A DNA stretch of 64,000 bases from Microcoleus sp. (GCA_042408215.1 JAYFMW010000003.1:384001-448000); one strand, 5' to 3'; counted from the first letter of the stretch, positions 53,036-64,000 are shown. Made by a program: numbers and translations. Notes: generated by a model not told the origin, from the letters alone.

Positions 53036-54448
53036 AAATAGCTGGTAAAAGTATAGTCATCTATTACAGTGCCGTGGGAGGCGTTGAATCCCTCCCCTTT
53101 CGCTTTCACTTCGAGCGGATTCAACCGCCTCGGCTGAACTAGGCCCACGACCTATCCCATTGCACAAGGCATTTGGGATTGCTTTTCTCAATATATTGTA
53201 AGACCCGTTAACATCAGCATTAATCAATCTACCCCTCGATGTTTTGTACAATCCTCTCTTAATTCGTTGGCCACTAAATGTGACATCCAGGGCACCAATA
53301 CTCCCGTATACAGGAATTGGATCTAAATTCAGAAAACTGGATTGAGAAGTATATGATTCTTGCTGCACCATCACTCTTATTCCGACCAATTCAGCTTTGT
53401 ATTCCAACATCTCAATTAATCGAGCATGAGGAACAGTTACGAAGTTCTGATTAGTTTTTTTTCCCAAATTAATCTCGTTTTTCCATTGTACATTTTTCCC
53501 TATTACCAGAGTCCCAATCTTTCCTGAACTTAAAAGATTGATGATAGAACGACTGGCCTGGTGTAAGTAATTATCGATTTTCTGGTTTCTACAACGAGTC
53601 AAGCGCTGAATCCTACGCGATGTTTTGCGACTCTCTTTCAATCGAGATTGTAGATGTGCTTTACGCTTATTGTAAAACTGATTAATTGATTTTAATGGTC
53701 GCCCGTTAATCAGTAAAGGGACAAATCCCGGCTGATTTGAAGTTAGCGCCACTAAATTATTCAATCCTAAATCAATACTAGCTACTAATTCTTTCTGATT
53801 TTCATCAATGGTGGACTCCGGCTCATCATAAATTACCTCGATTACATAAGAATCACATTTGGAAGTCTAACTTGACAAATTTGCTCTGGTTTTACCTGGG
53901 TCTTAATCAAGATCTTAGTCCCGGACAGATGGATAATTCCTTTCTTCAATTGCTTGCTACTAATCGCCTGAATCGTATAAACGAGAATGTTTCGCCCTTT
54001 GATTTTATCTTTGTATTTGGGTGTTTTTGGCCGTCCACTAAATTTTGTGGGTTCATTTTTGTAAGCTTTAATGGCTTCAAAAAACCCTGGCCAATTCTTG
54101 TCCAATCTCATCAATATTTGTAGACTTACTTTAGCTGGTAATGCCTTATATGCTGGATGAGATTTCATCAACTGAGCCATTTTGTTGTAATTCAGATATC
54201 CCCATCCGTATAGGAAGTTTTGGCCAATCACGTAGTTAGCAGCATTGTAAAGATTTTTAGATTGAAATGCTAATCCATCGATCGGGGCGAAACTATGTTC
54301 TGTGGATTTAATGATGTGCCTCTCTGCTAGTTGCATTCAGACTCTCCATTTTTCAACAAGCGCAATAATTCTCTCAGTTGAGCCTTCTGACTATATGATA
54401 CTACCATTGCTTACTACTGCTTACAAACTTAATAAAGTTTTATAATAC
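53036..54448 (-). mobile_element. tnpB element, frameshifted (paralog of 41106-42529)
   Basis: ORFs 53842-54336 and 53057-53764 align with 41215-42450; frameshift near 53860. Confidence 0.88.
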
Positions 54449-55538: not shown

Positions 55539-56943
55539 CAAGAATGCTCCCGCCTGCTCGAAGAGAGGCGGTGAGATGAATTGTCGCCAATAAACAACTG
55601 CGAAGCATCTTTTGAGAATAAAATATTGCGTTGTTTTCCTGCAGGATGGTATTGTAATTTTATGATAACACTAGCCTACGAGTACAAACTAGCTCCCACA
55701 CCCGAACAGATAAAGACTTTTGACAATTGGTTAGAGGTCTGCCGCTCGGTATGGAACTTTGCGCTTAGAGAACGCAAGGATTGGGTTAACTCTAGGAAGT
55801 GCGCTCTCAAAGCTTGTAGCATTTTATCGGAATATATAATTCCAGCAGATGCTAAACGTCCTACCTATGCTGGTCAGTGCAAAGGATTAACAAGAGCCAA
55901 GCAAGAATACCCACATCTTAAAACCGTACATTCCCAAGTGTTACAGCAAGTTTTGAAACAACTTGAGACAGCATTTGTGTCAATATGGGAAAGAGGATTT
56001 GGGTTTCCTAGATTCAAGAAAAAGATGCGTTCGTTTGTGTTTCCGCAAATGAAAACAGAATATCTAGTTGGGGATGTGGTTAAACTGCCTAGCATCGGGA
56101 TGGTCCCCATCCGTTGATCTCGTCCGATACCTGTTGGATTTGTCCTGAAGCAGGCAAGGATAGTTAAACGCGCATCTCGTTATTATGTGTGCTTTCATTG
56201 CAGTGTAATGTGAATGTACCTGACGTACCTCCTCACGGAGAGCCGTTAGGAATTGACGTGGGACTGACTTATTTCGGGGCTACATCCATAGGCGAGTTGG
56301 TTGAAAGACCTCGTTTCTTTGTCGATGCTTCACGTAAGCTGAAATTGCTACAAAAACGGCTAAAACATAAGAAGAAAGGTAGTAATAACTGGCATCAGCT
56401 CAACCAAAAAATAGCGAGGCTACAGGAACACATTTCTAATTCCAGAAAAAATTGGCATTTCAAATTAAGCCATCATCTCTGTAACCAAGCAGGAATGATT
56501 TTTGCTGAACATTTGAATTTAAAAGCCATGTCTAAAGGGATGCTGTGCAAACATACCTTGGACGCTGGCTTTGGTCAGTTTCTTAAGTTCTTGAGTTGGG
56601 TGTGTTGGAAACGTGATGTATACTTGGCAAAAGTAGATTGCAGAGGTACGTCTCAAACTTGCCCTATATGTGATGCCCACACTCCCAAAGATTTAAGTGT
56701 TAGAGTACATGAATGTGCTTGTGGGTATCGAACTAATAGAGATATTGCAGCAGCTCAAGTAGTGAAAAAGCGAGGACTTTTAAACCTTAAAGCCGATGGA
56801 CAAACGGTGTTTAAAAATGTCTGTGGAGACGGTCTAACGGGGATAGAAATATCTAGTCAAGAGTCTTTGAAGCAGAAAATTCAAGCTGTGAAGTTTGGAA
56901 TCCCCCACTGTACCCGATAGGATCAGTGGTGGGAGGATGTCAA
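55539..56943 (+). mobile_element. tnpB-only element; tnpB (55662-56920) inactivated
   Basis: TGA at 56115 in place of Trp and a frameshift near 56190; right end GGGAGGATGTCAA. Confidence 0.87.
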
Positions 56944-58544: not shown

Positions 58545-58913
58545 ATGGGTTTTGATTTGAACTTTAAGCCTGGTCAAATTGTCAGTTTAGAGTGTGGAGA
58601 TGCGTGTCTGCATTCCGAGGTAATTCAGGTGGTTGAGGCGCGTCAAGTTTGTTGGGTGCGCCCTTTGATGTTAGTTGTATTAGTGTCGGGGAAGGATTCA
58701 TCGGAAGAATACACTTTATCCGATTTACGAGATGGTGCTGATTTGCTTTGGCCGCTGAGTTTGTTTCGGGTGGCCTTGGATACAGAAGTAATTTCACTGT
58801 TGACTCAGTTGCAGTCTCTGGATTCTGAGAAAAAAGATGCTGTTATTGCTTCTCGGCAACTTAGGGATTTTGTCGATCGAGTTTGGGCAGCTTTTCCAAC
58901 AGCTTTTAATTAG
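58545..58913 (+). CDS. Hypothetical cyanobacterial protein
   Basis: Open frame with CWVRPL, DLLWP, ALDTEV. Confidence 0.7.
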   Translation: MGFDLNFKPGQIVSLECGDACLHSEVIQVVEARQVCWVRPLMLVVLVSGKDSSEEYTLSDLRDGADLLWPLSLFRVALDTEVISLLTQLQSLDSEKKDAVIASRQLRDFVDRVWAAFPTAFN

Positions 58914-59303
58914 TCATTAGTCATTAGTCATTAGTCATTAGTCATTAGTCATCAGTCATCAGTCATTAGTCATCAGTCATTAGTCAACAGTCATTAGTCA
59001 TCAGTCATTAGTCATTAGTCAACAGTCAACAGTCATTAGTCATCAGTCATTAGTCATCAGTCATTAGTCAACAGTCAACAGTCAACAGTCATTAGTCATC
59101 AGTCATTAGTCATCAGTCATTAGTCATCAGTCATTAGTCAACAGTCAACAGTCAACAGTCATCAGTCATTAGTCATCAGTCATTAGTCATCAGTCATTAG
59201 TCATCAGTCATTAGTCATTAGTCATCAGTCATTAGTCATCAGTCATTAGTCATCAGTCATTAGTCAACAGTCAACAGTCATCAGTCATCAGTCATCAGTC
59301 AAC
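58910..59303 (+). repeat. Long STRR array (AGTCATT/AGTCATC/AGTCAAC)
   Basis: About 56 heptamers between convergent genes. Confidence 0.97.
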
Positions 59304-60105: not shown

Positions 60106-61081
60106 TTTTTTTCTGTGCGATCGACACAACTAACTACTAACTTAACACTTCCGCACACTTTGACGGTTTGATTTAACAAAAAAGCGACCTGCAAGCGATC
60201 GCCCATCATCTCGTTACTTTAACTCATTGTACAGTTCGCGAAACACTAGATCCGCGAGCTTACGGCAACTAGCATTCCGAGCATCGGCGAGCCTGCCTCC
60301 GCGCTTTTTAGTTCCATCGCTTTCAAACGCGCGACTGACAAAATATTCGCGTAATTCCAACTGCAATACAGTGTAAGACTGTCCTTTGAGCTTCTGCGGT
60401 TCAATGCGGCAGTGCACGTAAGTCCACATCGTGCTCCTAGTGTTGGCACACCCCGTCCACTTGCTACCACCGCCACCTGCCCGGACTTGCCCGCTAGATC
60501 TCTCAACTTTGCCAAGTCCGCAAGCTTGTCGAAATCGTCGGAGCGCGCGCTTCTTCGGCAAGCACTGGAAGTCCTCGAACGGGAATATTCGAGAGAGAAT
60601 CCAGCCGCGCTCGCGGTAGCCGAATGCAAACTTTTCAAAAATTCGGTGATAAGGATCGAAGTCAGGCTCGCCAAGCAGGTCAATCAATCTGCGTTCAACT
60701 CTTGCCTCGGTATCGTGCAGGTCGCAAACCACCGCTGCGAGTTCCCGCGTCATTTCGGAGATATTTGCCCGATCGCACTTTTGCTCTTTCTCATAGTGAT
60801 TTTTGAATCGCGACAGAATGTTTTTAGACAGAAAGTTGCCGCGGTCGGCGAGCCACGCCCAAAACGCCGGCGGTTTGCCCGGTTCGAGCGAACCGTTTTG
60901 CCGCTGGCTGTTGACCGTCGCGCGCGCTGGATATTCCGCTCTATAAGACTTAGACAAAGTTAGACACCGTTAGATGTTTTTACTCTGATGCTTATTTCCT
61001 GTTTCAGCGTAGTCTCAGAATGACTTCTGAGGGTTTGTCTACTCCACAGGCAATCTCGGTAGAGCTTACCGTTTGATTCAT

Positions 61082-62209
61082 TCAATCTGAGCGAATCGGA
61101 ACGTGAATTCCTTCAAACCATCGCTCGATATTTTTAGCAGCATTCAAGTCTCTGTCTTCTGTGTGACCGCAATCAGGACACACATAAACTCGATTCTTTA
61201 ATGGCATTTTGTGGCGGTGATTTCCACAATTTGAGCAAATCTGAGAACTCGGAAAAAAGCGGTCAACTAGAATCAACTGACTAGAAAAATTTTCAGTTTT
61301 GTATTCTAGTTGTCGCTGAAATTCGTACATTCCACAATCTGCAATTGCACCCGCCAATTTGTGATTTTTCAAAAATGCTTTGACATTCAAGTCCTCAATT
61401 TTAATCACGCTGTGGTTTTTAGCGAGATAATTAGTGAGTTTGTGAATAGCATCTTTGCGGATGAATGAGATGCGAGAATGCAGCTTTGCTAACTTTCTAA
61501 CGGCTTTAGTCCGGTTCTTTGAGCCTTTAGCTTTGCGACTGACAGAACGCTGCAATCGCTTCATTTTTTTACTCATTTTGCGGTCAGCTTTAGGGTTGGC
61601 AAAAACCTTCCCGTCACTGGTAATAGCCAATTCCTTGATACCAATATCAACGCCAACAGAGGGGCGATTTAGTGGTGTTGGAGGCTGTTCAATCTCATAC
61701 TTGATAGCTATAAACCATTGCTCAGCAGTGCGACTAATTACGCAGTTATGGGTAGATGTGATAGGTAAAGGTTCGTGCAGTATAACCCAACCAATTTTAG
61801 GGAGTTTAACTCGCTTACCATCATTGCTGATACCAGGCTTGGCTTTAGTGCCTTGCTCAAGATAAAAACTGTCTTTTGACTTGCCTTTTTTCTTGAACTT
61901 AGGCTGTTTGGAGACTTTTTTGAAACATCTATCCCATGCCGTCCTTACCTCTGCTAAAGCTTGTTGTGGACTTGCTTTAGAGCTTTGATAGTACCAGGGA
62001 TTAACTGGTTTAATCTCAGCGACTAGACGTTTGTGCAAGTCAATAGCAGAGGGGATTTTGATTGCTTTGTCAGTCTCTCTAAGTTGTAAAGCTTCCTGAA
62101 TAACAGCATTGCCAAAATTGTAAGCGTGTCTGGCTACTCCACAGTGTTGACGAAATAGAGTCACCTGTTTGTTATTAGGTTTTAATTCCGTCTTAAAACT
62201 GAGTAGCAT
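61082..62209 (-). CDS. tnpB: TnpB (IS607)
   Basis: GVDIG, IEDLNV, CSNCG/CPDCG, DRDLNAA. Confidence 0.95.
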   Translation of the reverse strand: MLLSFKTELKPNNKQVTLFRQHCGVARHAYNFGNAVIQEALQLRETDKAIKIPSAIDLHKRLVAEIKPVNPWYYQSSKASPQQALAEVRTAWDRCFKKVSKQPKFKKKGKSKDSFYLEQGTKAKPGISNDGKRVKLPKIGWVILHEPLPITSTHNCVISRTAEQWFIAIKYEIEQPPTPLNRPSVGVDIGIKELAITSDGKVFANPKADRKMSKKMKRLQRSVSRKAKGSKNRTKAVRKLAKLHSRISFIRKDAIHKLTNYLAKNHSVIKIEDLNVKAFLKNHKLAGAIADCGMYEFQRQLEYKTENFSSQLILVDRFFPSSQICSNCGNHRHKMPLKNRVYVCPDCGHTEDRDLNAAKNIERWFEGIHVPIRSD

Positions 62210-62880
62210 TATTTTACAGCCTCCACTGCTTTAGCTATACCATCAATCAGTTTTTGGTTTTTGTGGCTTCTAGCTCCGTAAAGTCTAGCGCTAAAGACTT
62301 GAATTAATTCAATCATGTCTTGAACTAATTCCTGTTCAAAACTCAACTCATCCGGTGATTTGTTGACAATTACTACCTCGCATTCAAACTCTTCACACAT
62401 CGCAAAAACCAATTCAGAACCAAATCTAAGAAGCCGATCTTTGTGAGTGATGACAAGTCTACCAACTTCACCGGACATGATTCGTTTGAGTAGTTTTGTT
62501 AGTCCCTTTTTCTTGTAATTAAGTCCAGAACCTAAGTCTTGAATTGTCTCAAATTGCCAGCCATTAGCAGCACTAAACGATTCCAAGACAGCAGCCTGAC
62601 GCTTCAAATCTTCTTTTTGGTCGTGACTAGAAACTCTGGCATAGTTGATAGTGATTCGCTCATCTGTCTGATTCAAGTCTCTGGGAATGATTCGCTTGAT
62701 ATCGGCAAGGTAGAATCGTCTTTGTCCAGTGGGAGAGCGTTCAAACCTAATCTTGTCTGCATCAGTCCAGCGTCTCAGTGTCTTTGTCGAAATACCAAGC
62801 TCTTTGGCGGCTTCTCCGATTGAAAGGGTCACTTCTGATTGAGTCTCCAAGAGTTGCTTACCTCTAATACTACAACTCAA
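62209..62880 (-). CDS. tnpA: IS607 serine transposase
   Basis: MerR-like HTH (SIGEAAKELGISTKTLRRW), YARVSS, DLGSG, HKDRLLRFG; start uncertain. Confidence 0.95.
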   Translation of the reverse strand: MSCSIRGKQLLETQSEVTLSIGEAAKELGISTKTLRRWTDADKIRFERSPTGQRRFYLADIKRIIPRDLNQTDERITINYARVSSHDQKEDLKRQAAVLESFSAANGWQFETIQDLGSGLNYKKKGLTKLLKRIMSGEVGRLVITHKDRLLRFGSELVFAMCEEFECEVVIVNKSPDELSFEQELVQDMIELIQVFSARLYGARSHKNQKLIDGIAKAVEAVK

Positions 62881-63720
62881 TAGTTACCCAATCCGGGAAG
62901 AATGTCAATAGGTGTTTATCACAAATCTTTCAGCCCCCTACCCAAGCAAGGCGGCCTTTGATAGAATTGATGAAGCTGGTCTGCTTGCGCGTTGTGGTTT
63001 TCAAGTCCAGCAGCGCGCGGCGGATTTTCTCAATCTGGGGATTGAGCTCCTTTACCCAGAAGCGGCGATCGTACACGTCGAGGTAATGGCGGCGGTAAAG
63101 CTCGCACATCACGAGCGCATCGAACGAATCGTCCTTGTTATCAGTTCCTCCGAGGCTCCGGCGAGTAGCGCGTACCATGCCTTGATCCGCCGTCAGGACA
63201 AAAACCCCGTATCTTCGGAGATGCTTGCGCCAATAGTAAGAATAAGTCCCCGTGCCTTCTAATATTGCGACGGCGGGCGAATCTCCTACTTTTTTGAGCA
63301 AACTTTCGATTTCTGTAGTTTTGTAGACCGAGTGAACCGCGCCAAATTCAGGAGAGAGATAGAAATCTCTGAGTGCAACTGTCGGAAATTTCTCAAGCAA
63401 GACCACGTCCACGCGGTGCGCGGAAACGTCAATTCCTATTACTTTTAACATCAGTCTCCAACTATTAAAACTCTTACATAACCCACGAATCACCCAAGGG
63501 TGTTAACCCATATCCGCACTGAGGCTTAGGAGTTTTTATCGCGCGGCGAGGTTGGAATTCGCCGCGCGTTTGCGATCGGTCGTTCGTTCCCAGGAAGTAT
63601 TGGGGCGATAAAATCACCCACTTCCCATCTAAAGAACTAGAACCAATGCGAGGACGCAACCCTTACCCGCTACTCCCCTTTTTTCCAGGGGAGTTTCGAC
63701 TGTTAGGGAAACAGCCATCC

Positions 63721-64000
63721 TCAGGCGGGAATCAATCCGATCGCGACTAGCGATACGTAGACATAAATTGCTTTGGTCTGTTTGGTAATTGCGCTCGGTT
63801 CTACTTCCTCGAATTTCTTAGCTCGGAGAATATCGTTGGCAATATTTACGCATTCTGCCAAGCAACAGTCAAATGATTTGTGTGAACCTAAGAAACCGCG
63901 AGATTTAGCTGACTTGATAACTGCAAAAGTTTGCTTGAATTCTTCCTCGTTGTAGCTATCTTGCCGTAAGTTTTTGGCATCGGCGAGCAAGCGAAGAACC
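63721..64000 (-). CDS. Hypothetical protein, probably 5'-truncated by the window edge
   Basis: Open frame co-oriented with and upstream of the IS110-like gene. Confidence 0.45.
   Translation of the reverse strand, partial: VLRLLADAKNLRQDSYNEEEFKQTFAVIKSAKSRGFLGSHKSFDCCLAECVNIANDILRAKKFEEVEPSAITKQTKAIYVYVSLVAIGLIPA

Follow-up and report, generated by a model that had tools for sequence, protein, structure and literature searches.

We analysed a 64,000-nucleotide stretch of DNA from Microcoleus sp. (GCA_042408215.1, JAYFMW010000003.1:384001-448000; hereafter the window), in which a gene for an IS110-family recombinase is split by an IS607 insertion. The split recombinase lies at the right end of a 16.2-kb element, which is likely a prophage or a phage-like parasite, and is likely the element's RNA-guided integrase; it would use a predicted bridge RNA whose 5' end a hammerhead ribozyme is predicted to cleave. 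An initial annotation of the window had described the split gene and suggested that it may mark the edge of a larger integrated element. This suggestion was borne out: the element's ends were found at 60150 and, beyond the window, at 76310 (positions past 64000 are given in continued numbering). The bridge RNA, the hammerhead and the ends themselves are absent from that annotation.

The limits of the element were set by comparison with relatives. Host similarity ends at 60150-60152 and restarts at 76311, and about 16 kb upstream of the recombinase is collinear with DNA of genomes G010 and G011 that is located at another host site. Between the two GA cores the element measures 16,159 bp, and the recombinase is its last gene. 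All 24 relatives' loci examined lack the element, with an exact core join in 5. Of nine other elements of the family that were checked, four have an empty site in the source genome (G000). The element thus has a short core at both ends, GA, and a clean empty site; long attachment repeats were searched for at the ends and none was found, the end repeat being 2 bp. No close second copy of the recombinase gene is present in the genome. A stand-alone IS110 was rejected on the grounds of this single copy and the absence of a nearby left end, and the family, at 10-20 kb with many genes, does not have the form of a canonical insertion sequence (under about 2.5 kb, transposition genes only).

Leaving out the IS607 and one GG restores a frame of 410 codons with 0 internal stops, as the initial annotation had held. 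Intact 410-amino-acid homologues are present in G010 and G011, and the end-to-end alignment on which that annotation had staked the assignment was obtained: the rejoined protein is identical to the G010 homologue at 345 of 410 residues (84%) without a gap, and D8, E65, D108, D111 and S318 are retained. Its proposed comparison with the IS110 profiles was upheld for one domain only. PF01548 matches, which identify the N-terminal DEDD domain, reached 31.8 (window N-terminal part) and 33.3 bits against a cut-off of 29, but against PF02371 the window C-terminal part scored 14.6 bits (E 0.043), short of the required 21.3. In the intact G010 homologue, too, the first IS110 Pfam domain alone is recognised. 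A match to phrog_2199 spans residues 2-349 (E 7.6e-13). The pair S318-G319 is invariant in 31 homologues and lines up with the SG stretch of ISCro4, but at a negative score; the best PDB matches of the recombinase profile, to ISCro4 and IS621, are weak (9t56, E 0.016; 8wt6, E 0.022). Close homologues come from sources named Microcoleus and Tychonema. We consider it very probable that the recombinase would have enzyme activity. In sequencing runs X9 and X1, a 2-base deletion relative to the window was seen at 60225, in the last codons of the gene. More distant recombinases of 480-500 amino acids were also noted in L083 (G093:C85) and L082; in L083, whose RNA was not parsed, 10 kb separate two recombinase copies, and a tyrosine recombinase is close to each.

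The 270 bases upstream of the recombinase are conserved apart from two short variable stretches. In the window element these stretches spell both host flanks, and the different stretches of G010 and G011 likewise spell the flanks of those elements. The region can be read as a two-loop RNA whose guides match target and donor. To quantify the relationship, we used 49 loci with a recombinase match, 41 of which have the N-terminal motif and upstream DNA, and all 41 were parsed into four guides. Right ends were set by the donor motif alone, which was found in 40 of the 41. The right target guide predicted an average of 4.22 of 5 scored host bases (32 distinct guides), whereas shuffling the pairings gave 1.40 +/- 0.20 and never more than 2.31 in 20,000 rounds; 34 of 40 right flanks scored 4 or 5. 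For the left end, 17 loci were long enough; a left-end motif lay 12-19.5 kb upstream in 13 of them, exactly one in 11. The left flank, 15-20 kb away, agreed with its guide at 5/5 bases in 10 of 10 distinct guides (shuffled 2.02, maximum 4.2). In other families, 6 of 14 RNAs were parsed, the right flanks agreeing at 5/5 in 6/6 and the left flanks at 5/5 in all 5 that could be reached. The stem of the target loop covaries at 12 of 23 pairs.

Several observations count against this guide assignment. The remaining 6 of the 40 right flanks match at only 3/5 or fewer, 4 of the 17 long loci have no left anchor within range, and parsing did not succeed for 8 of the 14 distant RNAs. Moreover, the window element, G010 and G011, from which the guide register was originally read by eye, are all in the tested sets. 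The tested loci also include kin and so are not independent, but kinship does not explain why different guides track different flanks. Site choice, as judged from the compared loci, tracks the RNA guide, and changing ten or so guide bases would retarget the element. As a separate observation, the two RNA loops of some distant members (L127:8700-8900, L119 and L125) use other cores or repeat one motif; these members may have a different core chemistry.

A hammerhead core, in the order CUGANGA, stem, GAAA, stem, GUH and closed by a third stem, is found immediately 5' of the bridge RNA. A strict descriptor of this arrangement matched 40 of 54 upstream regions and 0 of 2,700 base shuffles; in the whole genome it gave 4 matches, 2 of which are the two elements of this recombinase family. 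Among 18 aligned copies the core bases are invariant, and pairs that change on both sides make up 4/5 of stem II and 2/6 of stem III, while stem I never varies and is thus uninformative on covariation. The hammerhead consensus used here was checked against the Rfam alignment of L127. Like the type I hammerhead (RF00163), the element copy has the CUGANGA, GAAA and GUH core and three stems with stem I open; it differs in falling under the family cut-off and in its fusion with a guide RNA, at whose 5' end it stands. From core and stems, ribozyme cleavage is probable. Alternatively, the stretch might be a structural 5' domain of the bridge RNA that does not cleave, which we regard as quite unlikely. 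Against cleavage speak the absence of a hammerhead match by Rfam in the window, the best Hammerhead_1 score of 18.5 against a cut-off of 34 bits (in the distant copy L127), the 14 of 54 loci that miss the strict descriptor, and the additional base that many copies have ahead of stem II. However, stems II and III vary and covary around an unpaired core that does not change, and some distant copies, L111 and L127 among them, have the canonical form. A promoter scan performed below chance.

The recombinase profile matches 38 of 79 genomes of the genus and 40 of 401 cyanobacterial genomes, in 24 of 151 genera; 177 representatives at 50% identity score below 1e-30, counting protein matches only. 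Elements with both ends measure 10.1-20.1 kb, save one deleted element of 5.7 kb, and an ordered gene set is common to elements across families. Regulators are of the XRE or ribbon-helix-helix type, and HU is also found. A lysin-like slot holds a C39 peptidase with an endolysin match or, in its place, a protein with a weak Tlde1 match. Fibre-type genes in relatives' elements give PHROGs or Pfam matches to tail fibre, S74 chaperone and collagen fibre, and these elements hold the receptor-binding fibre, lysis and repressor genes of a temperate phage. In the window element the genes beyond 64000 include an XRE repressor-like gene, a C39 peptidase, conserved unknowns and a tyrosine recombinase of 196 amino acids. 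One CRISPR spacer, located in G096, agrees at 31 of 35 bases with an element gene that is conserved. The repeat arrays of the source genome itself were scanned crudely (421 candidate spacers, of which many are not CRISPR), and none matched the element convincingly.

Whether the element belongs to a virus with its own particle is, in our judgement, evenly balanced. Two things speak against a virus. No match to a major capsid, portal, terminase or packaging ATPase was obtained from PHROGs or Pfam among the element proteins scanned, which are not every open reading frame; and no replication gene was recognised in Microcoleus-type elements, the replication-initiator match among element proteins being a single one. 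Because no capsid, terminase or portal was identified, the term virus is unproven. The elements have a block of 6-8 conserved unknown genes. Two capsid candidates were folded with predicted local distance difference test (pLDDT) scores of 84 and 76 and gave no clear structural match (best Foldseek E 0.20 and 0.16; best Z 3.2, root-mean-square deviation 4.8 over 66 aligned, and 3.5, root-mean-square deviation 4.5 over 92 aligned), a lack that does not show the folds to be new. A PDB sequence search with three conserved element proteins returned chance-level matches only. No relative was found in IMG/VR (protein, profile and RNA motif) or among GenBank phages, collections that depend on known viral markers. 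The fuller proposal is that these elements, small at 10-20 kb, form an undescribed group of temperate viruses of cyanobacteria, with unmatched folds in their virion proteins, reprogrammable RNA-guided integration and a hammerhead-matured guide; we hold it to be about as probable as its opposite.

The same genes could belong to a large cargo-bearing IS110 transposon that has acquired phage-derived genes and moves within or between genomes without particles. The lack of a capsid match fits such a transposon, as do the expanded IS110 loci described as mobile whole below 20 kb and partly of phage-derived DNA (bioRxiv 10.64898/2026.08.14.744561). Yet the gene content is a common ordered set across families and not a varied cargo, sizes cluster at 10-20 kb with one fixed left end, lysin-like genes and fibre tips are interchangeable, and a CRISPR spacer matches. 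We therefore find a cargo transposon rather improbable. It is also unlikely that the element is a phage satellite or a particle-borne plasmid that uses a helper capsid with its own fibres and lysin. Its size fits phage satellites, and fibre-like and lysin-like genes accompanied by no capsid or terminase match are what such an element would show; but the 6-8 conserved unknown genes leave room for a virion of unknown fold, and the protein scans revealed no hallmark of satellites.

A further alternative makes the tyrosine recombinase the integrase and the IS110 gene a passenger. The tyrosine recombinase of the window copy matches phage integrase families and is close to the left end. However, this small enzyme of 190-200 amino acids is internal in most elements and is replaced in 5 by a serine resolvase, which makes it unlikely to be the integrase; moreover, the end repeat is only 2 bp and both flanks track the RNA guides. 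This covariation of guides and flanks largely refutes the alternative, and we consider it very improbable. The small recombinase would act instead as a resolvase or invertase within the proposed phage-like element. A comparison of 66000-74200 with L062, L066 and L031 showed that a putative structural-gene block has, relative to the recombinase, opposite orientations in different elements; the block adjoins the small tyrosine or serine recombinase and is possibly invertible.

A metagenome scan for the predicted end-to-end joint of the element found at least 119 stretches, 80 of them with flanks, and most are due to chance. In 5 of the 80 loci the joint stands directly after the recombinase, and in two of these element genes come next. 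In the joined-end locus L168, the locus's own RNA predicts a different host flank. Such joined ends represent a circle or a tandem pair; that they could be tandem copies weakens the case for a circular form, and no circle joint was present in the contigs of the 4 sequencing runs compared. Four other metagenome loci (L177, L181, L192 and L197) carry the joined-end word with no recombinase match upstream, and may be non-autonomous derivatives, donor-like targets or scars.

These features suggest how the element would integrate. Early genes, RNA and recombinase stand head to tail on one strand and would form a single transcript, from which the hammerhead would cleave itself and free the bridge RNA. 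Of the two loops of this RNA, one would pair with the host site and one with the element ends once joined; strand exchange by the DEDD/Ser enzyme would then take place at the 2-bp GA core, by a chemistry like that of IS621. In IS621, according to Durrant et al. 2024 (PMC11208160), the RNA lies upstream of the gene, the core is short, donor guides are conserved and target guides variable, and the circle joint forms the promoter. Compared with IS621 and ISCro4 in that source, the present system has the same DEDD domain, a candidate SG serine, a predicted two-loop upstream RNA, a short core, variable target guides and conserved donor guides; in contrast, its recombinase is about 410 amino acids and far diverged, its core is GA and not CT, and the element is 10-20 kb, whereas IS621 is about 1.3 kb. 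The window RNA is more than 12 kb from the left end, so a circle-joint promoter of the IS621 type cannot sit just ahead of it; the hammerhead core is found there instead. A bridge RNA so far from the joint would need to be cut out of a longer transcript.

Other work bears on the novelty of the arrangement. The expanded IS110 loci of Hu et al. (bioRxiv 10.64898/2026.08.14.744561) reach 100 kb and, below 20 kb, move as whole units; they are mostly plasmid-derived and have a varied cargo rich in resistance genes that grew stepwise. The words "prophage" and "cyanobact" are absent from the main text of that paper. Those loci resemble the present elements in having an IS110 recombinase and a bridge RNA that bound a multi-gene unit, with mobility of the whole unit below 20 kb; here, in contrast, there is one conserved phage-like gene set and both donor ends are matched. 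Variants of the bridge RNA are reported in a survey of non-coding clusters (bioRxiv 10.64898/2026.10.21.760802), which elsewhere describes a divergent hammerhead cluster and states no connection of that cluster with IS110. The survey required both IS110 Pfam domains, of which the intact G010 homologue has only one. In the literature covered, which included few subscription papers and whose preprint supplements may list these loci, we found neither an IS110 enzyme in the role of prophage integrase nor a cyanobacterial family of this kind nor a fusion of hammerhead and bridge RNA.

Temperate phages with tyrosine or large serine integrases have the same repressor, lysin-like and fibre-like genes, terminal recombinase and joined-end form. 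Here, unlike in those phages, site choice follows an RNA guide, the core is 2 bp, many unrelated sites are used, and no known capsid or terminase was recognised among the proteins scanned. Known phage integrases read their site by protein. In size and in organisation the elements also go far beyond an insertion sequence. If our interpretation is correct, IS110 enzymes have been adopted as integrases by a phage-like family in 24 of the 151 cyanobacterial genera searched, and a class of prophage-like DNA in filamentous cyanobacteria has been overlooked. The family would provide a natural bridge recombinase selected to move 10-20 kb whole, together with a GA core, guide-target pairs that occur naturally by the dozen, and its own means of cutting the guide from a long transcript. 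Were the elements indeed viral, a viral attachment site would be written in RNA.

The IS607 that splits the recombinase is an ordinary, textbook insertion. It is about 2 kb long, and three further copies in the genome are 98-99% identical and have the same ends. A profile search matched its TnpA to Resolvase and MerR and its TnpB to OrfB_IS605/TNB; it thus has the MerR-serine TnpA, the TnpB, the GG core and the common ends of an IS607, and its TnpB is full length (375 amino acids) with catalytic motifs present. The target word is TGGG at two of the four copies, including that in the window, and AGGG at the other two. The junction sequences are exactly those of the initial annotation. A contig from run X9, which belongs to another study, joins 60935 to 62941 and skips 2005 bases, with 2 ambiguous letters, at a depth of 32; the short side of this joint is just 30 letters, and the joint was absent from the other 3 runs compared. 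The insertion is supported as recent and clean, in agreement with the earlier view, because the copies are 98-99% identical, X9 has an intact allele and intact homologues exist. No group I intron was matched by Rfam at E <= 0.5 across the 19 kb, and the gap between the IS607 left end and the tnpA frame is about 60 bases. The IS607 was therefore rejected as an IStron and would not splice out. Another IS607, as reported (bioRxiv 10.1101/2023.11.20.567912), has a GG core and a TGGG motif, excises without a scar and has a TnpB that cuts the empty site. The window IS607 has the same GG core, TGGG-like site and tnpA-tnpB layout, and would by analogy be reversible, its TnpB cutting the restored allele.

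In the window copy an IS605-family element sits where three conserved genes and the greater part of the fibre gene are missing; the peptidase, the repressor and a fragment of the fibre gene are retained. Because the integrase is split by the IS607, and conserved genes and most of the fibre gene were lost at the IS605-family insertion, this copy is likely grounded and decaying, though neither its RNA nor its ends are damaged. The same genome holds a second element of the family, split over two contigs (G000:C11:86622 to the contig end, and G000:C17:1-8260), which has a full-length recombinase, its own hammerhead and its own guides, and a left end predicted by its own guide; an IS605-type tnpB abuts its right end. 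The coordinates of the features are collected in Table 1.

Table 1. Features of the window and of the element that continues beyond it; continued numbering is used past 64000.
Feature	Position	Strand	Remarks
Window part of integrated element	60150..64000	.	continues to 76310 in continued numbering (G000:C3:444150-460310)
Element right end, 2-bp GA core	60150..60151	-	donor-left GTGTGCG / GA / host flank AGTGTTA (minus strand)
Recombinase, C-terminal part	60214..60935	-	putative Tnp domain, SSG serine S318
IS607 insertion incl. both GG cores	60936..62942	-	ordinary element; 4 copies in genome
IS607 tnpB, 375 aa (amino acids)	61082..62209	-	
IS607 tnpA	62209..62880	-	MerR helix-turn-helix + serine recombinase domain
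Recombinase, N-terminal part	62941..63451	-	RuvC-like DEDD domain
Predicted bridge RNA, two internal loops	63463..63670	-	3' limit approximate
Right donor guide	63487..63495	-	complementary, with mismatches, to element left end
Left donor guide	63513..63521	-	matches element right end
Right target guide	63594..63602	-	complementary to host flank 60143-60151
Left target guide	63623..63631	-	matches host flank at element's far (left) end
Hammerhead-ribozyme core, type I layout (CUGANGA, GAAA, GUH, three stems)	63667..63728	-	predicted cut after 63671
Conserved element gene, ~100 aa, directly upstream	63721..64000	-	extends to 64029
IS605-family insertion inside element	about 68324-70000		continued numbering
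Left GA core	76309-76310		continued numbering

Elements elsewhere showed some further features. In G010 and G011 (L018:884-15930 and L020), the GA core lies within a GGAG just ahead of a host start codon; GGAG is rebuilt at both junctions, so that this ribosome-binding-like word survives integration. The internally deleted 5.7-kb element (L094:4225-9920) occupies the same host site as the 16.8-kb element of L076. A 10.1-kb element (L109-L110; G422:C2, 178 kb) lies on the second, smaller contig of a two-contig genome; its left guide is identical to that of the main-contig copy.

Outside the element, the window contains two more tnpB-like genes, at 53057-54336 and 55581-56920, each broken into two frames. 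Short tandem repeats are common in filamentous cyanobacteria, and at 58913-59300 the window has an array of about 55 heptamer repeats of the TCATTAG/TCATCAG/TCAACAG type.

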